Assembly (NCBI GenBank): GCA_963763105.1
Contig: CAVXMT010000005.1
Coordinates: 4,685 to 68,684, forward strand
DNA length: 64,000 bases
Reading direction: 5' to 3'
Source of the DNA: an uncultured Candidatus Altimarinota bacterium
Lineage (GTDB): Bacteria > Patescibacteriota > Gracilibacteria > BD1-5 > UBA2023
Every line of letters begins with the position of its first letter. The stretch's first letter is position 1. This document shows positions 2,628-59,869 of this stretch, one piece after another. The notes beneath the pieces were generated by a model. It was not told the origin of the DNA. It made no database searches and saw only the letters and a program-made list of their open reading frames with translations. Position numbers and translations under genes: made by a program.

Positions 2628-4268
2628 ATGAAAATAATTTTTGTCACATGAGGTGTTCTCTCTGGTATTGGGAAAGGTATTTCTGCCGCCTCGATCGGAG
2701 CTATCCTCAAGGGTATGGGAAAGAATGTCTATTGTCAAAAGATTGACTGATATCTCAATGTTGATCCAGGAACCATGTCGCCATTCCAGCATGGAGAGGT
2801 TTTTGTCACAGAGGATTGAGCCGAGACAGATCTCGATATTGGTCACTACGAGCGATTCCTCGATACCGACATGAATCGATTTTCCTCATTTACTTCTGGA
2901 AAACTCTATGAAGAAATCATTACCAAAGAGCGTCGTGGAGATTATCTTGGTGGTACTGTCCAGATCGTACCACATTTGACGGATCTTGTGAAAGAAAAAA
3001 TACGATCAGGATTTGATCTCGCAGGTGCTGATATTTCGATCGTCGAAATCGGAGGAACAGTCGGAGATATGGAGAATGAATATATTCTCGAATCAGCCCG
3101 TCAACTTCAGCATGATCTTGGAAAAGAGAATGTAATTTTTGTTCATGTAGCACTTCTTCCATATCTTGCTGCAAGCAAAGAACTCAAGACAAAGCCAATC
3201 CAGCACTCTGTCCGAACACTCATGAGCTATGGAATCAATCCTGATTTTCTCATCATCCGTGCGGATGCCCCGATTCCAGAGGATGTGATAGAGAAGATTG
3301 CACATTCGACGGGAATTTCCAGTACACATGTGATTCCAGCGCCGACGCTTGATTCGATTTATCGAGTTCCACTTTCTTTTCATGCGGAGCATTTCTGAGA
3401 GAAGATTTTTGCTGATCTCGGACTTCCAGAAGTGAAAGCAGACATGAAAAAATGGGAAATTCTTCTTGCAAACATAGACGCTTCACACGATATTCTTCGT
3501 ATCGCTATGGTCGGGAAATATGTCGGACTTGAGGATGCATATTATTCACTCAATGAATGACTCAAAGCAGCAGGATTTGCTCATCAGAAAAAGGTAAAAC
3601 TTGAATTCATCGAAGCAGAAGATATAGAAAAGGAATTGAAAATTGAAAATTGAAAATTGAAAATTACGGATCAAGGAAAGATCTCAGAAATCAAAATCCT
3701 TCAATGATTCGATGGAATCTGCATTCCTGGAGGATTCGGGACGCGTGGAACAGAAGGGATGATCGAAGCTGCAAAGTATGCTCGAGAGAATAAAATTCCT
3801 TATCTCGGAATCTGTCTTGGCTCACAAATAATGGCAATCGAATTTGCACGCAATGTTCTCGGAATTGTGGATGCTTCGAGTGAAGAATTCAATGTTGAAT
3901 GAAAGAATAATATCATCCATATTATGGAACATCAAAAAGGCCTCACGACGAAGTGAGGAAATATGAGACTTGGATCCTATCCATGTATCATTCATGAAGG
4001 GACATTGGCTGGAAAAATTTATAATGAACTTACTGTCTCAGAACGTCATCGTCATCGATTTGAATTCAATCCTGCATATCGCGAACAGATGGAAGCAAAA
4101 GGATTTCTCGTCTCAGCGACGTCACCTGATGGGACACTTGCTGAAGTCGTAGAGATCAAAGATCATCCATATATGATCGCAACACAATCTCATCCTGAGC
4201 TTATTTCTCGTCCGACAAGACCTCATCCACTTTTCATGGGATTTGTGAAGGCAATGATCGGTTCGTAA
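2628..4268 (+). CDS. pyrG: CTP synthase
   Basis: MKIIFVT-G(TGA)-GVLSGIGKG N-terminus, GGTVQIVPH, GATase domain PGGFGTRG...LGICLGSQ...HRHRFEFN. Single frame from 2628 to the TAA at 4266. Confidence 0.95.
3634..3665. repeat. (AATTGAA)x4.5 heptamer tandem array inside pyrG
   Basis: aattgaa aattgaa aattgaa aattgaa aatt, translated in frame as ELKIEN-G(TGA)-KLKI in the inter-domain linker. Confidence 0.9.
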
Positions 4269-5009: not shown

Positions 5010-5169
5010 TTGACAAACACCCATATATCTCTATCATCAGCTTATGAATTTCCAAGCTCGTCTTGCATACCTTGTCCAGCCTCCCCTTTCGACTCTCGGA
5101 AGGTAATTTCATATGAAATCTCAAATCCCTCCTCGAGAGTCTTAATTGACAAGAAGGGGGGATTTTTTA
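5010..5169 (+). ncRNA. candidate small structured RNA or elaborate terminator: promoter-like element followed by a long imperfect hairpin and T-tract
   Basis: TTGACA (5010-5015), 16-nt spacer, TATCAT (5032-5037). Nested pairings: CCTCCCCTT/AAGGGGGG, GACTCTCG/CGAGAGTC, ATTTCA/TGAAAT (5080-5163), then TTTTTT. Confidence 0.3.
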
Positions 5170-5473: not shown

Positions 5474-7165
5474 ATGCTTAAGCTTTCCACGTTCCCATTC
5501 AAGACACTCAAGACCCTTCCAAAAGTGAGTGATAATAAGTCTACTTCTATCCTTCTTCAGGGATGATATATTCGCCAATGCATGGCAGGCGCGTATGAAT
5601 TTCTCCCGATAGGATATAGAGTACTTCGTAATATCGAAAATATTGTCCGTGAAGAAATGGATAATGCTGGCTATCATGAGATGCTTATGACTATACTCAC
5701 TCCTCGTGAGCTCTGGGATACGACCAATCGATGGGATATTCCAGAATATTTCAAGGTGCCTGGATGGGGAACGAGCGAGTTTCGTATTGCACCGACGAAT
5801 GAAGAAAATGTCACCAGTATTTTCCGAGAATTTATCCAGTCGTACAAGGATCTTCCGACGTGCGTCTATCATATTCAGAAAAAGTTTCGAAATGAGAAAC
5901 GAGCAAAATCAGGACTTCTTCGTGGTCGAGAATTTATCATGAAGGATGCCTATTCTTTCCATGCAAATATAGAGGATTTCGAAGCTTTCTATGAGAATAT
6001 CAAGTGAGTCTATATGCGAGTTTTTGAGCGACTTGGAATTGGTGCTGATACAGTCATTGCTGATGCTGATGGTGGCGCTATTTCTGACAAGAATTCTCAT
6101 GAATTTCAGACATTTATCGAAATTGGTGAAGATACTATTGTGCAGGATAGCTCAGGATATTCATACAATCTTGAGCTTGCTTCAGGAATTGCCGATACAA
6201 AAAATCCTGATGAGAAAATACAGTCTCTTGAGTATATCGATACCATCGATGAGATCGTCACTATGGAAAAGATGACGAAATATTTCAATGCTCCAGCTTG
6301 GCAGATGCTCAAGACAGTTGTCTATAAGACAAAAAGTGGAAAATTTTTCTCTATTGTCATTCGATGAGATCTTGATGTGAATGAGATCAAGGTTCGTAAA
6401 TTTGTCGCAAAAAAATATGGTGAAGAATTTACTCAAGCAACAGAGGATGACTTGATTTCTCTCGGTACTGTTCGTGGATTTATTACACCAATACGAGCTT
6501 CAAAACTCAAGATGGAAAACTTTGGTGATGAATCTCTTATGAGTGCGAAGAATTATTTTGGTGGCGCGAATACACTCGCAAAATCGACAAAAAATGTAAA
6601 TATTGCTGATCTTGATATTGCTGAATTCCTTGATTTCAATGAACCAATCGAATGATTTACTTCTCGAAATGTATCTGGCGAAAAGCTCACATTTCGTAAA
6701 GCATGTGAAGTAGGGAATATTTTTCATCTGGGAGAGAAATATTCGAAACCATTCGGACTCGCATATTCTGATGAGAACAATAATACTGTAAATCGAGTAG
6801 AAATGGGATGTTATGGAATCGGAGTTTCGCGACTTATGGGCGTTCTCGCTGAGTATTTCATGACAGAAAGTGGAATTGCTTGGCCAGAATCTGTTGCCCC
6901 TGCTGATTATTATATTATTGTGCTCGGTGAAGAAAATATTGCTTGAGCAACTATCCTTGCAAAATCTCTCGAGAAAGAATGAAAGACAGTTATTCTTGAT
7001 GATCGAATGGGTGGAAAATTTGGATTTGGTCAGAAGGCAGCTGATTGCGATCTCTGGGGTATTCCGAATCGGATTGTTCTTTCACCGGGGACTCTTGGAG
7101 AAGGAGGATACGAAGTGAAGGGGCGAACACAAAGTGAAAGTGAAATAATTCCATATTCTTTTTAG
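5474..7165 (+). CDS. proS: prolyl-tRNA synthetase
   Basis: Class II aaRS motifs FRNEKRAKSGLLRGREFIMKDAYSF and EVGNIFHLGEKYS, GCYGIGVSRLMGV, plus a C-terminal anticodon-binding domain. Every codon from 6653 to 7165 checked in frame. Confidence 0.95.
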
Positions 7166-7175
7166 CTTAATTTTT

Positions 7176-7802
7176 GTGAAGAGATTTCTTCTTTTTTTCA
7201 TCTTTCTCGGAGTTCTTTCTCTTTTTCCATGGTTTCTGATCTCAGGGATGGTATCAGATTCACTCTATCGTGATGTGGACGCTATTCCAGAACGAGAAGT
7301 CGGACTTCTTCTTGGGACGACCCCAAGTGTAAATGGAATCAATAATGTTTTCTATTCGACTCGCATCGAAGCTGCGAAAATGCTCTATGAACGGGGGAAG
7401 ATCCACCATATTCTTGTCTCATGAGATAATAGCACTGCCGCATATAATGAGCCTGAAGCGATGAGAAAATCACTTGTAAAGTCATGAATTCCAGAATCAG
7501 CGATTACACTCGACTATGCTGGATTTCGAACACTTGATTCTGTAGTGCGTGCTGGAGAAGTATTTTCTCTTACATGATGATTCACAATTATTTCTCAGCC
7601 ATTTCATGTCGAGCGAGCCCTCTTTCTTGCTCGGGCTAATCATATCGATGCGATCTGATATGGCTCTGCAAATGTGAGTCTATCTCTTGGGCTTCGTACC
7701 TATATTCGAGAAATTGGAGCTCGGTGGTTGGCGCTCTATGATGCTATTTTCGGAACAAATCCTATAGTGCTTGGTGATGTAGAGTTGCTCAATGGGAAAT
7801 AA
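7176..7802 (+). CDS. SanA/YdcF-like DUF218 membrane protein
   Basis: GTG start, N-terminal TM helix, then EREVGLLLGT...ILVS-G-DNSTAAYNEPEAMRKSL...IISQPFHVERALFLA. Confidence 0.75.
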
Positions 7803-16074: not shown

Positions 16075-16368
16075 ATAAATAGGGTTAAGAAATAAAATCA
16101 ATTTTGTAAATCTAAGGATATGAGACAAGAGTACTCTCGGGAAGTGATAGCAGTAAAGTATAGTGCCTTTCCGTCAGCGAGCATCTCATATGTGAGATTA
16201 CGAGGACAGTATATCAGGCTGAAGTAAGGAGTGAGTAAGACTCCATTATTCACTTCTCAGAGCATCTATCGGTTTCATTTTTGCGGCTTTAGAATCAAAG
16301 GCTGTAATCACAGGTGTTTTTAGTAAAAAGTTGCTTTTATTTTTCCCCATTCTCTGTATTATAGAGAT

Positions 16369-17580
16369 ATGATTGCACAGAAAAAGCGAAATATTCTCGG
16401 GGAAAACATTCCTCATCATTCGCTCTTTATTCTCATCGGAAAAGAAGAACAGATACGAAACGGTGATGTGATGTATCCATTCAGGCAGGATTCAGATATC
16501 CTTCTTTTTACTGAAGTGAGCTCTCCAGATATTATCCTCGTAGGAATAAAGAAACAAGAAAATATTGAGTGGATTCTCTATTCTGATCCGATTTCTGAGA
16601 GTGAAAAAATCTGGGGAACAAGTCGACAGAATTATGATGAGATTCGAGAAGCTTCATGAATTGAGAATATTCGTCCGCTGTATTCTCTCCAAAAGGATTT
16701 GAGAAAATGGACTATAGAATCTGAGAGAATTTATCTGAAGTGAGACCCCAATTTTCATAGAAATATTGGAAAATGAATACATATTCCGAAAGAAAAAATT
16801 CATTCTTGTGATTCATTCTTAAGGCCACTTCGTATGATCAAGATTCCGGAAGAAGTCGAACATATCAGGGAAGCAATTCGTGTGACGAAAATTGCTCACG
16901 ATCTCGTCAGGGATTCGATACGACCAGGAATGTATGAATATGAGATTGAGGCAATGATTGCTTCAGTGTTTCGCTCTCATTATCTCACAGAAGCATATCC
17001 GACTATTGTCGCAAGCGGTCCGAATGCATGCACACTCCACTATATCTGACATGATAGAAAAACAGAGACATGAGATATTGTTCTCATCGACGCGTGAGCA
17101 GAATATCGAGGATATGCGGCAGATATTACTCGTGTTTATTTTTGTTCTATATCCCACTTAACAACGGAGGACAGGGGGGATTTTTCTTCACGACAGAAAG
17201 AAGTCTATGAAAGCGTCCTTGCTGTGAAGAAATATGCTGAATCTCTTATTCGTCCAAGAATGAAGAAATTAGATTATGAGAAAAGAGTGAGAGAAAAAAT
17301 GAATGAAGAACTTATAAAGCTTGAACTTATTCCAAAGTGAGCTTCTTCAGAAATTGTGGAGAAGCTTTCTCGAAAATATTACCCTCACTCGGTTTCTCAC
17401 TTTCTCGGACTTGATGTTCACGATACCTGAGAGCGAGATGAGATATTTCACTCTGGAATGATCATTACCTGTGAACCAGGAATTTATATTTCCGAAGAGG
17501 GAATCGGCATTCGTCTCGAAGATGATATTCTTATAACAGAGAATGGATGCGAGAATCTCTCAAAAAATATAGCAATTTAG
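16369..17580 (+). CDS. pepP: Xaa-Pro aminopeptidase (M24B)
   Basis: YPTIVASGPNACTLHY, LIDA-G-AEYRGYAADITR, HSVSHFLGLDVHD, EPGIY, IRLEDD. Confidence 0.88.
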
Positions 17581-17640: not shown

Positions 17641-18192
17641 ATGAGACTTATTACACTTCTTGCTGGGTATGCTGCCGGACTTGCTGTAGCGATGAAATAT
17701 CGTAAAGATGCTGGAGTATCCAAGATTGAGACTGATTCAAAAAAATCAAAAGTGGATGGTTTTATCGATGAGATTGTTGATATTCACAAGACCGCTTATG
17801 GTGAAGTAAAAGGGTTTGTATCGACGCATTTTGATGATGTGAATGATTTTGATGCTCTCAAGACAAAAGCATCCTCCTTGATTGATTCATTTACGACCGA
17901 AGCGGAGAATCTTATCACTTCCTTGAAAAATAAATGAACTTCTGAGTGAGAATCTGCTATTGCAAAGGTCGATGCTTTGTATCAAGAAAAGGCTGAGATT
18001 CTCGATAAGGCAAAAGAAAAAGGATCCACTTTCGTCGATGTGGCACATGACACACTCATGAGTTGGATTGATGAGGTGAAGTCTCGACTCACACAAGCTC
18101 ACACAAGTATCAAGTCCACACTTGATAATCCAGTCGTCGAAAAATCAACACCAAAAAAGAAGGCACCTACAAAAAAAACTCCCGTTGCGTAG
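17641..18192 (+). CDS. membrane-anchored coiled-coil protein (YtxH-like)
   Basis: N-terminal helix LLAGYAAGLAVAM, charged helical remainder and a K-rich tail. Two TGA-Gly codons. Confidence 0.5.
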
Positions 18193-19426: not shown

Positions 19427-20422
19427 TTGCTTCCAAAACTCCTCACATCTCGACTTCAGACAATTCTTTCGACTGATTATGATAGTGTCATAGAAGCATT
19501 TTCTCATGAGAGGAAGTGATCTTTTCGTATCAATACTCTGAAATGAGATGGTACGGAAGTATTCTCAGAATTCGAAAAGAAATGAATCAAAGTCGAGAAA
19601 TTCGACGGGATACCATGAGCGTATTTTTTTGATCGAAAAGATGACTATGCGATGAAGGGAACTGATGCTTTCTATTCTGGAAAAATCTATCTCCAGTCAA
19701 TATCAAGTATGTTTCCCGTTCGCGCACTTGATCCACAGGCAACAGATACTATTCTCGATGTCTGTGCGGCGCCTTGATCCAAGACGACACAGATAGCTAT
19801 GATGATGAAGAATGAAGGAAAGATTGTCGCTCTCGAACAAAATCAGATTCGCTATGATAAACTCATGCACAATGCTATTCTTCAGTGAGCGACTATTATT
19901 GAGTGAGTGAAGATGGATGCAAAAAAATGGCTAATTGACAATTGACAATTGATAATAAAACAACAAAAAAATTGTATCAATGATTATCCATTATCCATTA
20001 TCCATTGTCAATTTAATCGTGTCCTCCTCGATGCACCATGTAGTGCTGAGGGGCGTATCTCTCTCTCGAACGAGAAGACATACGGTTTCTGGTCCCGTGA
20101 TAACATTCAGCAAAAAGCAGAGCTTCAGTATGAACTCCTCTCTCTTGCTTTCTCTCGTCTCAGGGTAGGAGGAACTCTCGTCTATTCGACATGTACTCTT
20201 GCGCCAGAGGAGAATGAGTGAGTAATATCTCGTTTTCTCGTAGACTGTCCTGATGCACGTCTTGAATCTATAGATATATGACTTTCCCATGCGACATGGT
20301 GGAAAAATGGACTTACTTCTTTTGGTAAATCTGAATATGGAGAAGAAATGAAAAAGGCAGTTCGGGTATTGCCAAGTGATGAGACAGAAGGATTTTTTAT
20401 GGTAAAAATTATTAGACCATAA
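19427..20422 (+). CDS. RsmB/RsmF-like rRNA cytosine-C5 methyltransferase with repeat insertion
   Basis: TTG start (no ATG in the open frame). FRINTLK, DVCAAP-G-SKT, LLDAPCSAEG, LVYSTCTL. Confidence 0.8.
19933..20011. repeat. inverted pair of heptamer arrays inside the RsmB/F-like gene
   Basis: AATTGAC AATTGAC AATTGAT AAT (19933-19956), 27-nt A-rich spacer, then TTATCCA x3 TTGTCAA (19984-20011). TTGTCAATT is the reverse complement of AATTGACAA. Confidence 0.9.
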
Positions 20423-21302
20423 GGATTTTCTTCCAATCTTCTATTTTTATTGCTTCCGCTCGTATCTTCTCATCATATCAGAACTTGACGAGGATTGATC
20501 GTATATTTTCGAGATTATAGGTGCTTCATTTCAGATTCGAGAGAAGCGTCTTACGAGGATGAGTGAAAGCCACTTTCCAAATATTGAGAAGTTTTTTTTC
20601 TATCTCATGATTCCGAGATTTTTTTACAGAAAATTTGAGTACAATTGAGTCAACTTTCGGCGCCGGGTCAAATGATTCTCTTCCAACATATCGGATAATC
20701 TCAATATTGTCACAGGCTTGTTCCATGGCGAGTGAGAGAAATGAATGATGGATTTTTTTTCCTCTTCCAGCGAGGATTTTTTTCCCGACCTCTTCTTGCA
20801 TCATAATGACCATTTCTTGAGGTGGATTGAAACCCCCCTTATCAAGGGGGGTAGGGGGGATATTACCCCCTCCGACTCCCCCTGTTAGGGGGAGGGCCTT
20901 TGGATACAAAAAATGAAAAAGAATCGGACTCGTGATATAATAGGGAATATTTGCAATCACAGAATATTCTTCATAAGAAGGTATGAAGGTGAGAACATCC
21001 TGATGATGCAACGTTATTGGTGTCGTTTTTACGAGATGAGATTCATCTCAGAATATCTTCGGAGCTTCTTCGTCCCCCATGAATCGTGCATCGAGAAGAC
21101 TTACCATATCTGTATCGAGCTCGACAAGATCAAGAGAGAGAGGATGATGAGAGAGAATATACTCAGTGAGAGCACCATATCCGGGACCGATTTCTATGAT
21201 ACACTTCTCGGCGATAGTGATCGATCGTGCAATATCGGAGAGTGCCTCCTCATCGATAAGAAAGTTTTGTCCGAGGGATTTCTTCGGTTTTATAATGCGC
21301 AT
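20412..21302 (-). CDS. rsmA: 16S rRNA (adenine1518/1519-N6)-dimethyltransferase
   Basis: LGQNFL, EIGPGYGALT, ANIPYYITSPILF. Contains a G/C-palindrome insertion. TAA stop at 20412. Confidence 0.9.
20831..20895. repeat. G/C-run palindromic element, in frame in ksgA
   Basis: CCCCCCTTatcAAGGGGGG, GGGGGGAtattaCCCCC, CTCCCCCTgttAGGGGGAG. Encodes ...LPLTGGVGGGNIPPTPLDKGGFNPP. Confidence 0.85.
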
Positions 21303-24339: not shown

Positions 24340-24392
24340 TAGAAAATTCCAGAAATGGAAAAATTCAATCTAAACTCTAAAATCTTCATTTT

Positions 24393-28995: not shown

Positions 28996-29033
28996 TCTCA
29001 ACTATAAATTGTCAATTATAAATTTTCTTATCT

Positions 29034-30713: not shown

Positions 30714-30760
30714 TACAATCCTAGAAAATAATCTCTCATGAAAATGGGGGATTTTTTGTT
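30681..30760 (+). repeat. left copy of the direct repeat (rplO 3' end plus terminator) bracketing the AbiE cassette
   Basis: GAGAAAGTAGGAGGgAgtGTGAATgT...AATCTCTCATGAAAATGGGGGATTTTTTGTTT, repeated at 32111-32250. Confidence 0.85.
30731..30758 (+). terminator. rplO terminator hairpin
   Basis: ATCTCTCA-tgaaaa-TGGGGGAT followed by TTTTTT. Confidence 0.55.
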
Positions 30761-34344: not shown

Positions 34345-35085
34345 CTATTCCTTCCGTGGTTCAGGATTATTGGAAATATGATGATGAATATTTCTCGAAA
34401 GAAATATCTCATTTCTATAGTTTTTCGACGGATCGTATTCGATAAGAGTATCAAGAGAGACAAAAGTATATCCAGTATTTTTGAGTCAAGAAAGTATCAT
34501 TGGAAGTGCTTTTACAGTATCTTCCTTGATATCATGAAGGAGGATAATGCTTCATGGTTTTGTCTGGGCAATGATTTTTTTCGCGAGAAGGACTGGATTT
34601 TTTGCCTTCCAGTCATAGGCATCGACATTCCATCCGATGATCGGCCCGGAATAGAAATTTCCGATTCGTTCATCGAGAAGCCCATAAGGGAATCGGAAAA
34701 AGTGTGGATACTTTTCAGTGACAGAATAGATTATTAGACTTGTCTCGAGAATCTCTTGTATATAAGAAAATACTGGAATCTGAGAAAGTCGCGCATGGTC
34801 ATAGCTATGATTTCCAATAGTATATCCATCGTCGCTTATTTTTCTCACAATACTTGGATATCTTCTGACTCTATTTCCTATGACAAAAAAAGTCGCAGGC
34901 ACTTTTTCTTTCTTGAGGATTTCGAGAATGGAAAGAGTATTCGTGGGGTGTGGCCCATCATCGAAGGTGATACTGATTTCTTTTTTCTCTGATATACACC
35001 AAGGAATTACTTTTTCTGATAGAGTAATCTCAGAAGAAGGGTGTGATCCGAAAAAGATGAGAATAAAAGAAACAAAAGAGAACAT
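34345..35085 (-). CDS. polysaccharide deacetylase (NodB homology domain)
   Basis: ISITFDDGPHP, GNHSYDH, RFPYG and LLHD motifs. N-terminal hydrophobic segment. Confidence 0.85.
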
Positions 35086-35129
35086 ATACTCCCGAGTGTA
35101 CTCGGAAGAAGGGCATTTGCAAGGATATA

Positions 35130-36293
35130 TTACACTATAATTCCACTTCCAAGTACGCGATCTTCGTCGTAGACAACACAGATTTGTCCAGGAGTTATCG
35201 CGCGTTGAACTACCTCGAATCTCACTGTCAACTGTCAACTGTCAACTATGAATTCTCCATTTTGATCCTCTTGTCGATAGCGAATCTTGACTCAGTATTT
35301 TTTTCACGCTTCAGGAATTTCCCCACTCCATTCCACGAGAATACATTCATTTTTATAGAGCGAGAGTTCATCTTCATTTCCTACGGTGATAGTATTTGCC
35401 CGTGTATCTTTTGCAATGACAAAAAGGGCTTGCCCTCCACCGACTTTGATACCTTTTCTCTGGCCAATCGTATAGGAAAAAGCTCACTCATGTTCTCCAA
35501 TGATTTTTCCATGAATATTCAGAATATTTCCTGGCTTTTTCGGAAGTCGACGTTCGAGAAATTCTTTCATGCTTACTTTTCCGATAAAGCAGAGTCACTG
35601 AGAATCTTTCCTTTCCGCATTGGGAAGTCCTACTTTTTTTGCAATCTCACGAACTTCTGACTTCATAAGGTGTCAGATCGGGAATATTGCCTTCTCAAGC
35701 TGAAATTCTGAGAGTCGAGAAAGAAAATATGACTGATCTTTATTTGGATCGACTCATTTTAATAGTTGATAGTTGATAGTTGATAGTTGATAATTCTTCT
35801 CGGCTCTTTCATTCTCAATTCTCAATTCTCAATTCTCAATTATTCGTGCATAATGCCCGGTTGCGATAGCGTCAAATCCAAGTGAAAGTGCCTCTTCGAG
35901 AAAGAGATCAAACTTCACAAGATTGTTGCAAAACACATCCGGATTGGGAGTGCGCCCTGCATCATATTCTCTATAGATATACTCTACGATACGTTTCTCG
36001 TATTCTTCTCGATAGTCGAATGTGTAGAAAGGAAGATTGAGAAATTCTGCTACTTTTCTTGCTTCTTCGAGGTCTATCCGAGTCGGACAATATCCCCCCT
36101 GTCCCCCCTTGACAAGGGGGGTGCCCAAAGGGCGGAGGGATTCGTCTTCGAGATAATTGATCATAAATCCACAGGATACGTCATAGCCTGCTTCTTTGAG
36201 AAGATATGCGGATACTGCAGAGTCGACTCATCATGAGAGTCCGACAAGAACTTTCGTTGGATTTTTTTGGGAATGATGATTTTTATCTTCCAT
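35130..36293 (-). CDS. mnmA: tRNA 2-thiouridine(34) synthase MnmA, carrying three repeat-derived in-frame insertions
   Basis: PP-loop VGLS-G-GVDSAVSA, NPDVFCN, ATGHYAR, DPNKDQSYFL, GQRKGI. Every codon from 35130 to 35831 verified. Confidence 0.93.
35226..35246. repeat. (TGTCAAC)x3 heptamer array in the mnmA C-terminal domain
   Basis: The coding strand reads GTTGACA x3, giving IVDS-G-QLTV. Confidence 0.9.
35764..35841. repeat. two heptamer arrays (AGTTGAT)x4 and (CTCAATT)x4 separated by 22 nt, inside mnmA
   Basis: 35764-35791 and 35814-35841. Encodes IEN-G-ELRIENERAEKNYQLSTINYQLLK-G between the ATGHYAR and DPNKDQSYFL motifs. Confidence 0.9.
36088..36140. repeat. G/C-run palindromic element (same family as 20831), in frame in mnmA
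   Basis: ATATCCCCCCtgtCCCCCCTTgacAAGGGGGGtg. Encodes LRPLGTPLVKGGQGGYCPT. Confidence 0.85.
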
Positions 36294-36927
36294 GAGGGAG
36301 GCTTTCTATTATTTCTTGCCAATCTTTCACACGGTACACGAGAGGATGATTGATGATATGATCACGATTCCATGGTTTTTCGAGGAGAATCGTCACTATA
36401 TTGTTGGCTGCGAGGTCACGAGCATTCTCTATATGATCATCGATCATGAGATCAATCCCAAGAGTCTTACATACAGCTGATTTCGGGAGTGCTTCAGTGC
36501 TATAGTGATTTACAAAATGAATATCGTTTTCAGGAATTTCTCAGAAATAATATCCTACCCAATCAAGAGTTCTTCTTTTTTTGATCTGATCACTCCCATT
36601 TCGTGCCGTAATGATGGAATATTTTTTTCCAGCACTTCTGAGCATTTCTACTCACTCTCTTGATCCATGTACGAGGGGAGTATCAGTCGGTCAGGTGATA
36701 TTCATACCATACTTATGCCAGAGTTCTACAGTCTCTTCTTTTGTAATTTTGAATCTCGGATTCTCGAACATATCATGAGTCGTGAAGTCTTCTATACTTG
36801 CACACATGAGAAGGAAATTCTTCGTATGGGCGTACTTGAGGAATTCTGAAAAAGTAGCAGCAAGTGTCTCATCGAGATCGAGTCCAATATGTGTATGTTT
36901 TTCCCAGTCAAGGTCGCGTATATTCAT
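36283..36927 (-). CDS. HAD-superfamily phosphatase (5'(3')-deoxyribonucleotidase-like)
   Basis: Motif I GLDLDETLA. ...IITARN...MIDDH. Overlaps the mnmA start by 11 nt. The start could instead be an upstream ATG. Confidence 0.65.
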
Positions 36928-38168: not shown

Positions 38169-38234
38169 TATTTGATTTCATAGAAAATATTTATATAATT
38201 CTGTCTGTTGTTCGATTATGGAGTATTTTCAGAA

Positions 38235-38266
38235 AAACTGGATTGCTTCGTACCTCGCAATGACGG
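38235..38266 (-). repeat. REP-like element, copy 3 (variant core, opposite orientation)
   Basis: The reverse complement reads cGTCATTGCGAGGTACGAAGCAATCCAGTTTTTCT. Confidence 0.6.
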
Positions 38267-38308
38267 GAAACCCCTACTTTTTACTATCTCTATTAACTAT
38301 TACTATTT

Positions 38309-41926: not shown

Positions 41927-42679
41927 GGGTCTTCCCCAGTTATCGGTTAGTTTTTCGGAGTAATTTTAAGATTTCTTTGTAGATATCTTTTCATTTTATA
42001 CGACAATTATATCTAAATTCAGATTCTTTCAAATAATAATAAAAGTAGGCTTTCTTAATTCCATTGAATCTTGAGAGTCTTCTTTTTGTGAAGCTCCAAA
42101 ATGATTCAATTCAGTTGATGTGTTGGTTTCATCTGGCAAATTCATTCGCTCCATGATGAACTCTATAATGCTTTTCATATCCAATATCCACAAGTCCATC
42201 ATATGCAGGCCATCCATCACTATTTATCTCTGTATCTTCTATCTTTACTTTTCATCTGATTATAGGTAATAGAGTCTTCTTTTTTACATCAGGAACTATC
42301 TCAGTATATACTTTTCAGTTTCTTTTCAGGAGTCCAAATACTATTGTTTTCATTCCAGCTCATCTTCATCGTTTTCCACGAACTCGAGTAGGTCAGAAGT
42401 AAGATTCATCTATCTCCATAGTTCCACTCCACACTTCTGCTTTCTCCTTTTCTTGATTCTCAAATATACATTTACGAATATAGAGATACCAATCATCTAT
42501 AGTTTTTGGATTTAAACCAATAATTTCATGTGTTTTTGAAGCGGGTAAATCCAGTGAAAAGAACTTGATAATTTCTCTTGTTTTCTTGTTTCAAATTCGG
42601 GATTTTTTTCGATACAGGTTTTTCTTCTCCATAGAGCCAGTATATTAGGTAAATAAATACCGTCAACTGGGGAAGACCC
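41927..42679 (-). mobile_element. IS element 'A' (IS1595/ISXO2-like) nested in IS-B
   Basis: Perfect 15-bp inverted repeats GGGTCTTCCCCAGTT / AACTGGGGAAGACCC. 7-bp direct repeat TTGGATA at 41920-41926 and 42680-42686. Confidence 0.85.
41940..42632 (-). CDS. IS1595-family (ISXO2-like) DDE transposase
   Basis: MEIDESYF-G-PTRVRGKR-G-R-G-AG, NSDGWPAYDGL, HINGIESFWSFTKRRL, FRYN. Several TGA-Gly codons. Confidence 0.85.
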
Positions 42680-43648
42680 TTGGATAATCTCGTTGTATGG
42701 TTTGGATAAAATCCAAACAAACAAAAAGTTGATCAATACTTCTCATCAATGAATTATATGCAAAATGAAGTCTTGGATGAACTGGCTTATCTCTCAGTGT
42801 TTTAGTATCCAGTTCTTGTTGTCTAAAGTCCGCCTCATACTTGTTCCTAAATCCCCTAAGTTGCCAAAGAAAAGTTGCCTTATCTGTATGTACTACTCAA
42901 TGAGTTATCTCCTTGAGTTTCTTGTATGATTCTATCCTTGGATATTTGAGAAGATATCTGTCTATGGTGGCTATTTTATGTGCTTGGCAGAGTTGTATAG
43001 GAATATTTGAATAGTATTTCCATATGGCAGTATCTACTCCATTTCTTCCATCAATCACAGCAAAGAAAGGAAGTGGATATCCCCCATGAGACAAATAGTG
43101 AAGTAATATTTCGTAATCTTCTTTGGTTTCTTGAAGAATGTGTTTAGATGCAAGAATATCTCCTGTAATGCCATCTATTGCCACCAAGAGTCACCATTGT
43201 GTATCTGAACCCTTTCGACCGAAGAATGTAGCATCGAGAATAAGGACAGATGAGGTATATTGAGAGAGATTTGGATTAAGACGGATATTATAATGAAGCT
43301 GAGACAACTCTATCTTTTCATAGAAGATAGAAGTCAGTTTCCTGTGTATTGTTTTGATGGACATTCAAGAATCATCTGCAAGTTCAGAAAGGGTTTGTTT
43401 ATGGAGAGAATAATCTTGAAATAATTGATCGTTCTGTTTCTGTGATGCTCTTCGAGAACTTCGGAAAACATACTTACAATTCATACACTTATATCTCTGT
43501 CTTCACCGTTCTTTACCATCTTTTCTGACAAGGTTATTCAAACATTTTGGACAGATTTTAATCATAAAAATAAAATAAAGCGGATAAACCGCTTTATTAT
43601 GCTGAGAACTCAGGAAAAAACCCACCAATAAATGTCCATTAAGCCATT

Positions 43649-46194: not shown

Positions 46195-46230
46195 TCTATA
46201 ATTGTAAATGGTGAATGACAAATCCCCAAA

Positions 46231-46258
46231 CAATTAACAATTAACAATTAACAATTAT
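46231..46258. repeat. (CAATTAA)x3 plus CAATTAT heptamer array in the rpmJ-rpsM spacer
   Basis: caattaa caattaa caattaa caattat. Confidence 0.9.
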
Positions 46259-46630: not shown

Positions 46631-46672
46631 TTTATTACTAAAACCTCACTCTAAACTCTAAAATCTAAACCT

Positions 46673-48784: not shown

Positions 48785-48805
48785 ATAATTCATAATTCAT
48801 AATTC
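48785..48805. repeat. (ATAATTC)x3 heptamer array in the rpoA-rplQ spacer
   Basis: ataattc ataattc ataattc. Confidence 0.9.
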
Positions 48806-48811
48806 AATACC

Positions 48812-50056: not shown

Positions 50057-50081
50057 AATCAATTATCAATTATTTCCTCCC

Positions 50082-51080: not shown

Positions 51081-51101
51081 ATAATTAATAATTAACAATT
51101 C
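51081..51101. repeat. ATAATTA ATAATTA ACAATTC heptamer array in the rpsG-rpmA spacer
   Basis: Direct reading. Confidence 0.8.
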
Positions 51102-51379: not shown

Positions 51380-51420
51380 TTCAGACTAAAATCTCAATCT
51401 AAAATCTAAAATTCCTTTCT

Positions 51421-53520: not shown

Positions 53521-54420
53521 ATGTTCCACCTCGAAAAAAACCAATATCCAAAGGATTTCTATTATCATCGTACAGCATCTGCTACCTATAGGGAGTACCT
53601 TCATACATGTAAGCTTGCAACTTTTGATATACAAAATCCACCACAATATGCATGGAAAAAACATATTTTCGGAAATTCTTTTGGAATCATAAAGTATGAA
53701 CGTATCGATGTCGAGCCCGATATCGAATATCTTAAGCAAGTGACAGGATTTCAGCATGCGTTTGTCGTATGGATACCTTATTCACGTGAGAATATCGATA
53801 GACCATGGAGATGACTCTGGCTCACAGATCACTTCGAAGAGACTGGATACGCTGAGTTAATTCATAATTGACAGTTGAGAAGTGACAGTTGAGAAGTGAC
53901 AGTTGATAATTTAGAAAAGATACCATATCTCTCTTCTTGGAATGATCGTGCGAAACGAGCACGAAAAAAATTTCTCGCTTCAGGGTGCACGATTCGTGAT
54001 GTGACTCCTGATGAATTCACGGAGGCATTCAGAACGACCAAAGTGAAACATTGGTATAAGTGAGCATACATAAGCTACTACAAGCGTATGGTTGGTATTG
54101 ATGCGACGAAGATTCGTCAATGGCTCGCATATGATCCTACTGGAAGGGTAATTGCCTGACTTGCTGTCCATGATTTCTGTGAAAATCATTCCGTCCATCT
54201 TGTGGCGTTTACTGATCAGAAATGATACCACTATCAACCTGGAACAGGGCTTATAGATCGGTGGTTTTCTGAGTCGTATGATCGTGGATACAAATATCTT
54301 TCATTCGATCAGCTTCGCAATAAAAATGGACCAAAAGACCAAAAAGGATATACGGAGTTCAAGGAAAACTTTCTCTCTGTATGACTCTCATTTAAGAAGG
54401 CATTCTTTCGATTCTTTTAG
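53521..54420 (+). CDS. hypothetical protein (possible FemAB/CelD-like acetyltransferase fold) with a 14-mer repeat insertion
   Basis: All 300 codons verified. ...HLVAFTDQK-G-YHYQPGTGLIDRWF...GPKDQKGYTEFKENF. The functional call is weak. Confidence 0.6.
53869..53910 (+). repeat. 14-mer x3 tandem array, in frame
   Basis: TGACAGTTGAGAAG, TGACAGTTGAGAAG, TGACAGTTGATAAT. Encodes -G-QLRSDS-G-EVTVDN. The last unit is identical to the tlyA repeat unit. Confidence 0.92.
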
Positions 54421-59133: not shown

Positions 59134-59869
59134 TTACAATTTTTTTATCCAGTACATCCATTCCTCATTCCCTGCCTCTCCAATGACAGTTGATTTCTCT
59201 TTTTGCAAAATTTCGCAAGATGAAGACTCAAGAAGATCTTCCCATATTTTCATTTTTTCTTCGATGATTTTTTCTCATTTTGGAATGCCAGTCTTTCGAA
59301 GATTTTCAGCACCAACTTCGAATTGAGGCTTATAGAGAAGGAAAATATTTGTCGATATATTTGCGAATCTGAGTATGGCAGGAAGTATTATTGTTATAGA
59401 AATAAAAGAAACATCGCAGGTGATAATATCATATTGTTTTTTCTGATTTTGGAATGTACGAATATCCGTCTGCTCATATGAAGTCACTCGCGAATCAGCG
59501 CTGATTCTTGTATCAAGCTGGCCTGTACCGACATCGACAGCATCTACGTGAAGTGCTCATTTTTCGAGAAGTACCTGAGTGAATCCTCCTGTCGAAGCAC
59601 CAATATCGAGACAATCACTTCCTGTAATTATCAACTGTCAATTATCAACTGTCAATTGTTCTAAAAATCCATCAAGTTTTCCAGCACTCCGAGACACCCA
59701 ATGAAGTCGCTTATCTTCAACAAGGCTAACGGTATCAGTCCCAGTAATATCAAAAGAAACTTTTGTTATGATTTTTGAATTGACGAGAACAAGTCCAGGA
59801 TTCGATAAATTGTTTTGCTTTATTTCTCGTAAATCCATACTGGAGAGCAATGTGTTGATCAAGTCGCAT
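59134..59869 (-). CDS. tlyA: TlyA-family rRNA 2'-O-methyltransferase; needs a +1 frame change near 59797
   Basis: The S4-like N-terminus MRLDQHIALQYGFTRNKAKQFIES is in the frame of ATG 59869. The rest (GLVLVNSK...DIGASTGGFTQ...TCDVSFIS) is one nt out of frame: GAA TCC t GGA. Confidence 0.7.
59627..59658. repeat. 14-mer x2 tandem array inside tlyA
   Basis: ATTATCAACTGTCA x2 followed by ATTG. The coding strand reads TGACAGTTGATAAT x2, encoding LTVDN-G-QLII. Confidence 0.92.

Follow-up and report, generated by a model that had tools for sequence, protein, structure and literature searches.

In the 64-kb stretch of contig CAVXMT010000005.1 analyzed here (named the window), the mnmA gene, which encodes the tRNA 2-thiouridine(34) synthase of a Candidatus Gracilibacteria bacterium, carries short repeats at three sites. 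We consider it probable (∼70%) that these repeats derive from a miniature mobile element and from slippage in situ, and that they are tolerated loop insertions which, filtered for frame, stop codons, and fold, are simply read through during translation. Read-through is the most economical explanation because the frame is kept, stops are avoided, the inserts are sited in a loop or at a hairpin tip, insert-free relatives exist, and three repeat classes converge. An earlier interpretation made from the letters alone (the sequence-only reading) had described three repeats in mnmA. All three are present at the places given, within a single open frame (Table 1); the heptamer arrays were delimited with Tandem Repeats Finder (TRF).

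Three repeat sites in mnmA

With the standard bacterial code, the mnmA region contains only short open reading frames (ORFs), and when TGA is read as a sense codon one open frame extends from 36293 to 35130. This frame contains 10 in-frame TGA codons, which include both glycines of the PP-loop motif SGGVDS. The other eight correspond to positions shown as W in the alignment of homologues, where the database translated TGA as W. Because TGA occupies conserved glycines of mnmA, both SGGVDS glycines among them, it is read as Gly, and the organism is therefore a code-25 bacterium. ARAGORN detected no tRNA-Gly(UCA) in the 64-kb window; the conserved glycines encoded by TGA are the basis of the code assignment. 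The predicted protein has homologues down to E = 1e-191, named Candidatus Gracilibacteria, matches Pfam families PF03054, PF20259, and PF20258, and contains the catalytic motifs SGGVDS, DVFCNN, and GLCFIG. Its protein cluster has one member only. An AlphaFold model built with 52 homologues, for which the database version of the sequence with W at TGA positions was used, has a mean predicted local distance difference test (pLDDT) score of 85 and template modelling (TM) scores of 0.82-0.88 to MnmA structures 2hma and 2det (0.88 to 2hma, from S. pneumoniae). In this model, the inserts form a disordered loop and an extended β-hairpin, and the rest of the protein displays the normal MnmA fold. The mnmA gene of the window is thus intact and, judging from the model, looks functional. 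It had been called essential, which is an overstatement for mnmA in general. Tryptic peptides of the predicted product over the inserts are IIENGELR, IENER, NYQLSTINYQLLK, and PLGTPLVK.

The lengths of the three sites were surveyed in 109 full-length MnmA homologues. A close relative, L001 (GCA_036170175.1), shares with the window a 6.6-kb syntenic block of ∼91% identity, which reaches ∼95% in mnmA outside the variable sites. This block contains only four indels of ≥3 nucleotides (nt), among which are mnmA site 1, mnmA site 2, and a hairpin element at 38214-38270. A RuvB-like/MgsA gene (140-1575 in the window, 3785-5220 in L001) is 34 kb from mnmA in the window and ∼3 kb from it in L001, and a rearrangement therefore separates these two ∼92% identical genomes.

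At site 1, 12 native nt are replaced by a 51-nt GC-rich compound palindrome (net +39 nt, or +13 amino acids (aa)), whose outer ends, ATCCCTCC...GGGGGGAT, form an imperfect inverted repeat. This insert is missing from L001, where the site reads GAA TTT CCT GAT TCA TGC CCG, and from L124, both relatives having TTTCCTGA(T/C)TC(A/T) at this place. The site-1 segment is 7-9 residues long in 108 of the 109 homologues and 22 in the window alone, and alignment with S. pneumoniae MnmA shows a 13-residue gap there. The insert had been placed after the PP-loop domain; alignment and model put it within the catalytic domain, flanked by strand 2 and helix 2, where residues 51-68 are modelled as a disordered loop (pLDDT ∼50) directly before the invariant C69-x-T71. 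As RNA, insert 1 folds strongly (−34.2 kcal/mol, z = −3.1). Comparison with the empty sites of L001 and L124 revealed no target-site duplication. At its right junction, the mnmA insert reads GGGGGGATATT-G-TCCGACTC, like the inner part of a second copy of the element in ksgA, GGGGGGATATT-ACCCCC-TCCGACTC, and the CCGACTC common to both is native mnmA sequence in L001. These two copies point, tentatively, to an event guided by microhomology and not to cut-and-paste with target duplication. Because L001 has no insert 1 and a homologous copy is present in ksgA, site 1 is a recent in-frame insertion of a dispersed repeat element.

Insert 2 consists of two perfect heptamer arrays of 4.4 copies each (100% matches by TRF), separated by a spacer that had been given as 22 nt and measures 18 nt. 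It adds 16-20 aa (+20 aa net, +16 aa relative to 2hma). The sequence-only reading had stated that the distance between ATGHYAR and DPNKDQSYFL is roughly doubled relative to E. coli MnmA. This distance is 31 aa in the window, versus 14 aa in E. coli, and the site is 16 aa longer than in 2hma. It had also credited each array with a TGA-Gly codon. This is correct for the 5′ array of insert 2 and for the site-3 array, but the GC palindrome contains no TGA, and the one downstream of the 3′ array encodes the conserved LLKG glycine. In the model, insert 2 forms a long β-hairpin, with strands at 150-159 and 168-178 and a pLDDT of 65-82, and its arms pair weakly as RNA (−11 kcal/mol, z −1.2).

Site 2, the tip of a β-hairpin, is highly variable. 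Its length (from GHYARI to LLKG-x-D) is 5-6 residues in 46 of the 109 homologues, 9-11 in 23, and 14-154 in 40, and ∼37% of Gracilibacteria MnmA have unrelated repeat-derived sequence there. Three unrelated repeat classes share the same boundaries: heptamer arrays (the window; L123, with (AAAATTC)x4 ... (AATCTTG)x4.4; L128, AATGACG-type; and L129, AAATACA-type), GC palindromes (a double hairpin in L001; P0016, P0050, and P0083), and a CATTGCGAGG..CGAAGCAATG class (L122, which is of CATCGCGAGGAACGAAGTAATGAT type, and others). Site 2 is wholly different between the window and L001, despite ∼95% identity on both flanks. The occurrence of three unrelated classes at one site is a pattern that favours tolerance over targeting. 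A metagenome scan with the MnmA alignment returned mostly non-Gracilibacteria MnmA with 40-45% identity, and four useful loci.

Uninterrupted versions of site 2 are found in L124, which reads ATA GAT GAC GAA TGA AGA CTT CTC AAG TGA (RIDDEGRLLKG), and in L127, which reads ATC ATT GAG AAT AAA GGA TTT CAT CTC CTC AAA TGA (IIENKGFHLLKG). The native L127 sequence contains the 9-mer ATTGAGAAT, i.e. one unit of the 5′ array of the window plus two bases, which fits in-place growth of this array from native codons. The 3′ array alters the native Leu-Leu codons (CTA TTA in the window versus CTT CTC), and the right flank of the site is CTATTAAAATGA in the window versus CTTCTCAAGTGA in L001 and L124. These sequences make insert 2 look more like native turn codons expanded on the spot than like an element that came from elsewhere. 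The right flank in its native form, TTCTCAA, and the 5′ unit TTGAGAA are reverse complements of each other, to which we give no weight.

Site 3 is of another kind. Although it had been listed as the third of three in-frame insertions, only sites 1 and 2 are net additions on a preserved MnmA fold, as assessed by multiple alignment and structure prediction. Site 3 aligns gap-free to relatives and to 2hma, and is not a net insertion since these have homologous sequence of equal length, which rules out an origin by insertion under the test proposed in the sequence-only reading. The segment between RYRQEDQ and QRAIT has 18 residues in the window, which is the modal length, and 18-21 in 90 of the 109 homologues. 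All four other relatives with readable DNA at this site are heptamer-periodic there, with differing units: CTGATAG TTGACAG TTGATAG in L001, GTTGAAG ATTGAGA ACTGAGA ATTGAGA ATTGAAT in L122, (AACAATG)x4.6 in L123 (+2 aa), and TGAAAGT TGAAAGT in L125. The survey of 109 homologues also showed that all three repeat classes of site 2 occur at site 3. In the model, this site corresponds to a native hairpin in the C-terminal barrel, with an S-G turn between strands 344-351 and 354-363 and a pLDDT of ∼90. Site 3 is a native hairpin that was homogenised or rewritten with different units in each lineage, its length being held.

Related repeats in the window and in other genomes

The GC palindromic element has two homologous copies in the 64-kb window, both of which are in genes (mnmA and ksgA), stop-free, and in frame. 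The ksgA copy is longer than the mnmA copy and adds ∼20 residues relative to solved KsgA, the alignment with B. subtilis KsgA being interrupted for ∼20 residues at this point. The core of the element, CCCCCCTT(A/G)TCAAGGGGGG, is often followed by N2-5 and GGGGGGAT. When genome contigs were scanned for this core, matches were mostly in cyanobacteria and other phyla, Gracilibacteria being poorly sampled. Cyanobacteria were commonest among the matches, which also included Nitrospirae, Calditrichaeota, Chloroflexi, Poribacteria, Patescibacteria, and one Gracilibacterium. In Microcystis, the core is embedded in the architecture of insert 1, i.e. GATCCCCCC-gccNNNNggca-core-ca-GGGGGGATC. Two metagenome-assembled genomes (MAG) contain the hairpin core in frame in other genes. 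In the Ca. Gracilibacteria MAG L096 it lies at ∼893-911, in ...NIVGSPLDKGGTEGGRACEIF..., within a gene that we take by eye to be queA. In the standard-code Patescibacteria MAG L017 it lies at 3541-3559, in ...ETPSSPPLDKGGMGGVVKK..., within what we take, again by eye, to be a linker of DNA polymerase I (polA). In-frame invasion of housekeeping genes therefore extends beyond this genome and beyond code 25.

A repetitive extragenic palindrome (REP)/REP-associated tyrosine transposase (RAYT) system was considered for the GC element and does not fit. Palindromes of that system are extragenic and 20-40 bp long, whereas both copies in the window are intragenic; neither a GTAG nor a CGTC tag is present in the mnmA copy, and no tyrosine transposase of this type was seen among the window ORFs scanned, in a scan that was not exhaustive. 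A scan for short inverted repeats across the window gave nothing informative. Isolated G5-6 runs followed by ATTTTT (...ACAGGGGGGATTTTT...), at 5156-5166, 17174-17184, and 30746-30750, resemble the right end of the GC element and may be element fragments or terminator-like sites. The indel at 38214-38270 is a 57-nt intergenic insertion with the hairpin GTCATTGCGAGGTACGAAGCAATC, and L001 does not have it. Hairpins of this type are also found in frame in the mnmA of relatives, at site 2 in L122 and at site 3 in L124.

Longer elements with similar ends contain an endonuclease-like domain. In L206 (P0021; JGI Ga0654431_0000822, 6001-7473), a complete DUF559 domain (Pfam E = 2e-26), which has in-frame TGA-Gly codons of its own, forms an in-frame fusion with MnmA at site 2, and sits between two GC hairpins that are mutually inverted copies (CCTCCCCTAAGATAGGGGAGG / TCCCCCTATCTTAGGGGGAG). 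It matches PDB entry 3hrl ("endonuclease-like protein") and co-matches a restriction-endonuclease Pfam family, and we take DUF559 to be a member of the Vsr-like endonuclease fold. No intein or intron features were found at the fusion. A protein search with this DUF559 insert gave no match, even P0021 itself being missed because of a word-index limit. Free-standing DUF559 ORFs are present in Okeania sp. KiyG1 (L058, 1790-2220), flanked by CCCCCCTTATCAAGGGGGGTTAGGGGGGATC ... GATCCCCCCTAACCCCCC, and in Nostoc linckia NIES-25 (L090, 1330-1790), bracketed by a ∼42-nt near-perfect inverted repeat. The inverted repeats around these two ORFs have the form G5-6 TT(A) G5-6, in the style of the window GC element. 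Similarly, the two-hairpin element at site 2 of L001 has ends (CCTCATCCCCAACCC...GGGTTAGGGGGTGAGG) of the form G5 TTA G5. This likeness suggests that the short GC elements may be miniature derivatives of nuclease-bearing, putatively mobile elements. DUF559 ORFs with G-run inverted ends may represent a so far undescribed group of nuclease-carrying elements that also has miniature forms.

Heptamer repeats are numerous in the window. We found 10 period-7 runs, whereas 50 dinucleotide shuffles gave 0.28 on average and never more than 1; runs with periods of 8-12 are not enriched in the window. The arrays identified by TRF have 100% matches and 3.4-4.6 copies, and use GAATTGA, TATCAAC, GTTGACA, and other units, not TAACTGA. 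Besides mnmA, in-frame arrays are present in pyrG, a gene for an RsmB/F-type methyltransferase, an unannotated gene, and an FtsJ/TlyA-like methyltransferase gene (Table 1). In the RsmB/F-type gene, the RsmB-F Pfam match covers 229 residues for 196 profile positions. Over its three frames, a TTGANNN array is read as (I/V/L)(D/E), (N/S)G, and L(K/R/T), and the resulting (I/V)(E/D)(N/S)G x L (K/R/T) string has the character of an amphipathic peptide with a strand-turn-strand layout. There is no excess of isolated TTGA-N3-TTGA proto-repeats, the excess coming from the arrays themselves. Since RNA folds of the heptamer pairs are no better than those of shuffles (z −1.2, −1.4, and +0.2), we no longer considered that the arrays act as strong hairpins.

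Arrays within and between genes differ in their stop codons. On the sense strand, TAA/TAG is present in 1 of 16 intragenic array units and TGA in 12 of 16, compared to ∼18% each for random genomic heptamers. The single unit with TAA/TAG belongs to a 14-nt-period array that is too short for the stop to come into frame. In contrast, 10 of 12 intergenic units contain TAA/TAG. All coding repeats, here and in relatives, keep the frame. The earlier suggestion of selection for frame-neutral events is thus supported. The window has eight intergenic arrays (24367-24385, 28998-29024, 46229-46257, 46648-46670, 48785-48806, 50058-50073, 51081-51100, and 51386-51412), with units such as AACAATT, ACTCTAA, ATAATTC, and AATCTAA, and all eight end 2-9 nt upstream of an ATG. 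At least seven of the eight downstream genes are presumably ribosomal-protein genes (rplV, rplR, rpsM, rpsK, rplQ, rpsL, and rpmA, named by eye). Because most of these units hold TAA/TAG, every frame contains a stop once there are three copies. The intergenic arrays are not followed by any obvious Shine-Dalgarno sequence. In the more distant Gracilibacterium L123, spacers of the ribosomal-protein operon contain AGAATTT, TAGATTG, AGATTTT, and TATGAGA arrays (16143-16176, 17800-17817, and 20191-20229), which indicates that intergenic arrays are a lineage feature whose units are not conserved.

Table 1. Location of mnmA, its repeat sites, and the related coding repeats of the window
Feature	Position	Strand	Description
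mnmA (tRNA 2-thiouridine(34) synthase)	35130-36293	minus	387 aa under code 25; from translation, homologues, Pfam, and AlphaFold model
Insert 1, GC-rich compound palindrome (site 1)	~36089-36139	minus	ATCCCTCC-GCCCTTTGGGC-A-CCCCCCTTGTCAAGGGGGG-ACA-GGGGGGAT; encodes SLRPLGTPLVKGGQGGY
Insert 2, 5′ arm (site 2)	35811-35841	minus	(GAATTGA)x4.4 on the coding strand (ATTCTCA on +); encodes IIENGELRIEN; one TGA-Gly codon
Insert 2, spacer	35793-35810	minus	18 nt, ..GAAAGAGCCGAGAAGAAT.. on the coding strand; tip of extended hairpin
Insert 2, 3′ arm	35759/35762-35792	minus	(TATCAAC)x4.4-4.9 on the coding strand (ATAGTTG on +); encodes NYQLSTINYQL; continues into native LLKG codons
Site 3	35224-35247	minus	(GTTGACA)x3.4 on the coding strand, perfect (TRF); encodes IVDSGQLTV; TGA-Gly at turn
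Second GC palindromic copy, in ksgA/rsmA (20412-21302, minus)	20825-20900	plus, opposite to host gene	CCCCCCTTATCAAGGGGGG-TA-GGGGGGATATTACCCCC-TCCGACT-CCCCCTGTTAGGGGG...; in frame; encodes PKALPLTGGVGGGNIPPTPLDKGGFNPP
pyrG array	3634-3665	plus	(AATTGAA)x4.6, in frame, within 15-aa insertion; gap versus T. thermophilus CTP synthase 1vco
RsmB/F-type methyltransferase array pair	19933-20013	plus	(AATTGAC)x3 ... (ATTATCC)x3.4 + GTCAATT; inverted pair, in frame
Unannotated 299-aa gene array	53868-53906	plus	14-nt period, (TGACAGTTGAGAAG)x2.7, in frame
FtsJ/TlyA-like methyltransferase array	59622-59657	minus	14-nt period, (reverse complement: TTGATAATTGACAG)x2.6, in frame

Origin and fate of the inserts

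According to the read-through explanation, the inserts would be ordinary translated sequence, read as extra surface structure of MnmA. Site 1 would have received a miniature GC-rich palindromic mobile element, which is dispersed in this genome, in other candidate phyla radiation (CPR) bacteria, and in cyanobacteria, and whose longer versions, with matching G-run inverted ends, would carry a DUF559 (Vsr-like) endonuclease gene. Sites 2 and 3 would be heptanucleotide microsatellites, most likely grown in place by replication slippage. The seed for slippage may be the codons of β-turns, xTT GAx xxT TGA (I/V-E/D-N/S-G) or TGA xxx TTG Axx (G-x-L-K), in which TTGA occurs twice, 7 nt apart. The double TTGA of such turn strings (ATT GAG AAT TGA; TGA AAG TTG AAA) would explain simply both the presence of TGA in the arrays and their siting at hairpin turns. 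Under the standard code, TGA-bearing arrays of this kind could not persist within a gene. Selection would then retain only the events that restore the frame, have no TAA/TAG, and fall at fold-tolerant places, i.e. the tip of a β-hairpin as at site 2, an exposed loop as at site 1, or, as at site 3, a native hairpin rewritten without a change in length.

Several points weigh against this explanation. We infer translation of the inserts from sequence. Since each 7-nt slippage step breaks the frame, intermediates must either be rare or undergo compensation. No clear proto-repeat is seen in native sequence for the 3′ arm of insert 2, and the paired arms are partly complementary (5-6 of 7 positions per unit), which hints at an inverted-duplication or template-switch step beyond simple slippage. 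Likewise, the outermost 10 nt of the RsmB/F-type pair are perfect inverted repeats, which simple slippage does not readily produce. The modelled hairpin of site 2 could touch tRNA. With regard to the nuclease-bearing element, tblastn detected no DUF559 gene in the window or in close loci, DUF559 is nearby in 2 of 120 cross-phylum hairpin loci, and the proposed link draws on three cases.

The sequence-only reading had also raised a step that would remove the inserts before the mature protein, which could be excision from the RNA followed by religation, skipping of the hairpin during translation, or protein splicing. We regard this as highly improbable. Although insert 1 has a strong RNA structure, and mobile elements that lie in frame and are spliced out or skipped are known (inteins, and the bypass element of T4 gene 60), all inserts, here and in relatives, are multiples of 3 nt without in-frame TAA/TAG, a constraint that is needed only if they are translated. 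At 13-20 aa, they are far under the size of an intein (the Hint domain is ∼130 aa or more), and they have neither a Cys/Ser start nor a His-Asn end, nor any intein motif. Bypassing is no better matched, since there is no in-frame TAA/TAG in or beside any insert, and neither a take-off codon followed by a stop nor a landing codon to match it. Moreover, the heptamer pair of insert 2 folds no better than shuffles, Rfam yielded only chance snoRNA and miRNA matches at E up to 10 over 35000-36400, and the model places the inserts on a normal fold. An assembly or sequencing artefact would account for the repeats of a metagenome-derived contig, but this can be practically discounted because the arrays are 24-34 nt long, well within one read, and similar arrays and elements, with the frame kept throughout, are present in independent NCBI, ENA, JGI, and Logan assemblies.

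The remaining alternatives concern why the repeats are where they are. If the nuclease-bearing element homed into mnmA, the site-2 hot spot would reflect targeting, and the GC elements and perhaps the arrays would be products of decay or repair. The complete DUF559 domain of L206 sits exactly at site 2 between inverted hairpins, the two-hairpin element of L001 shares the same boundaries, and the 7-nt microhomology at the right junction of insert 1 would also suit such a process. On the other hand, the three unrelated repeat classes found at site 2 also occur at site 3, the elements are in many different genes (ksgA, queA, and polA), and the arrays of the window have no GC hairpin remnant. As a full account targeting is therefore unlikely, but it may contribute to the site-2 hot spot, the activity and specificity of the nuclease being putative. 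That the inserts are adaptive, e.g. that a longer hairpin is a new RNA or protein contact for MnmA held by positive selection, seems distinctly less likely. Insert 2 is modelled as an ordered hairpin and some extension of site 2 is retained in many lineages, yet the sequence and length of this site are unconserved even at ∼92% genome identity, 46 of the 109 homologues have a minimal tip of 5-6 residues, and insert 1 is unique and disordered. We give marginally less credence still to the possibility that the arrays are contingency loci, in which slippage by ±7 nt would switch mnmA, pyrG, rsmB, and other genes on and off, or vary a loop. A 7-nt unit does shift the frame, slippage is to be expected in perfect arrays of 3-4.6 copies, units at the same site differ between close relatives, and heptanucleotide repeats are reported to drive phase variation in Haemophilus. 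However, the hosts are housekeeping enzymes rather than surface or restriction genes, a class that fits poorly, and the arrays are mid-gene at structural hairpins, with in-frame alleles in both close genomes.

Beyond read-through itself, a wider scenario can be put forward, which we hold only tentatively and think rather unlikely to be right in full. In it, reassignment of TGA to Gly would have made TGA heptamers translatable, so that in Gracilibacteria they seeded at β-turn codons and extended or overwrote hairpins of housekeeping enzymes, a lineage-wide way for protein loops to evolve, their TAA/TAG counterparts would serve upstream of the starts of ribosomal-protein genes, and the GC inserts would be miniatures of DUF559 elements that enter genes without an intron or intein across CPR bacteria and cyanobacteria.

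Relation to known repeat systems

The GC element is most easily compared with the Rickettsia palindromic elements (RPE), dispersed palindromes found in frame in unrelated housekeeping genes, which are translated and thought to be fold-compatible (PMC10969869). Like RPE, it is multi-copy and in frame in unrelated conserved genes (mnmA and ksgA in the window, queA and polA in relatives), at a fold-compatible loop. It differs in size (∼50-75 nt versus ∼150 bp for RPE), in its CPR host with code 25, in the occurrence of its core hairpin in cyanobacteria, Nitrospirae, Chloroflexi, and other CPR bacteria, and in its possible long form with DUF559. Because length and composition differ, and with no RPE consensus compared, we classify the GC element as working like RPE, not as a member. 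Miniature inverted-repeat transposable elements (MITE) that give in-frame fusions, such as ERIC, BOX, Coxiella QMITE1, and the Anabaena MITE, are short non-autonomous inverted-repeat elements that add peptide to ORFs (PMC10969869). In contrast to these, site 1 of the window has no target-site duplication, 12 native nt being replaced, and no partner transposase was seen, the lone transposase among the ORFs scanned being of IS1595 type.

Inteins and Vsr-like (EDxHD) homing endonucleases (for the latter, PMC2677866 and PMC3239194) also invade conserved genes in frame, and the DUF559 domain at site 2 of L206 is reminiscent of them. L206 has no protein-splicing domain or intron, and its nuclease domain would thus stay fused inside MnmA. 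Unlike these systems, the inserts of the window carry no ORF.

Short tandemly repeated repetitive (STRR) heptamers are known in cyanobacteria. TAACTGA heptanucleotide repeats of Beggiatoaceae and cyanobacteria are often found a few nt upstream of start codons, including those of ribosomal-protein genes, and polymerase slippage has been proposed as their cause (MacGregor 2015, PMC4679880). Long simple sequence repeats are treated in Mrazek 2007, as cited in PMC4679880. The arrays of the window resemble these repeats in their 7-nt head-to-tail units, in their 2-6 copies, far above chance, and in the eight intergenic arrays before starts. They differ because the unit varies by locus (TTGANNN in genes, TAA/TAG units between them) and because arrays are within conserved domains of housekeeping enzymes, not at ORF ends, some as inverted pairs that encode hairpin strands. 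Arrays within conserved domains are possible because TGA is not a stop here. In Borgs, tandem repeats are reported to evolve fast, to be of recent and independent origin, and to be selected to add protein regions (bioRxiv 10.1101/2022.05.18.492195). The same study describes Borg repeats as making intrinsically disordered regions on archaeal extrachromosomal elements, whereas the site-2 product of the window is modelled as an ordered hairpin, and its 7-nt unit keeps the frame by compensated combinations alone. The 9-mer repeats of Gracilibacteria PTD (PMC6851277) were also considered and are a different phenomenon. Our literature search returned no description of mnmA inserts or related features for Gracilibacteria.

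The repeats of the window are set apart from these systems by their dependence on reassigned TGA, by arrays inside conserved domains, by a cross-phylum GC element, and by a possible DUF559 partner. They illustrate how selfish and slippage-prone DNA is able to reshape conserved proteins, and the remodelling of MnmA is datable because a ∼92% identical genome has no insert 1 and a different element at site 2. They also link a change in the genetic code to which repeats survive in genes, and reveal one MnmA loop at which three unrelated classes of repeat have repeatedly landed or expanded. For annotation, repeat-derived segments in Gracilibacteria proteins should not be mistaken for domains, frameshifts, or assembly errors. 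Finally, a family of nuclease-bearing elements with G-run hairpin ends may be common to CPR bacteria and cyanobacteria.

No link is evident between the repeats and the sole transposase gene among the ORFs scanned, which is of IS1595/ISXO2 DDE type and lies beside a zinc-ribbon ORF (41940-42632 and 42645-43565, minus strand).

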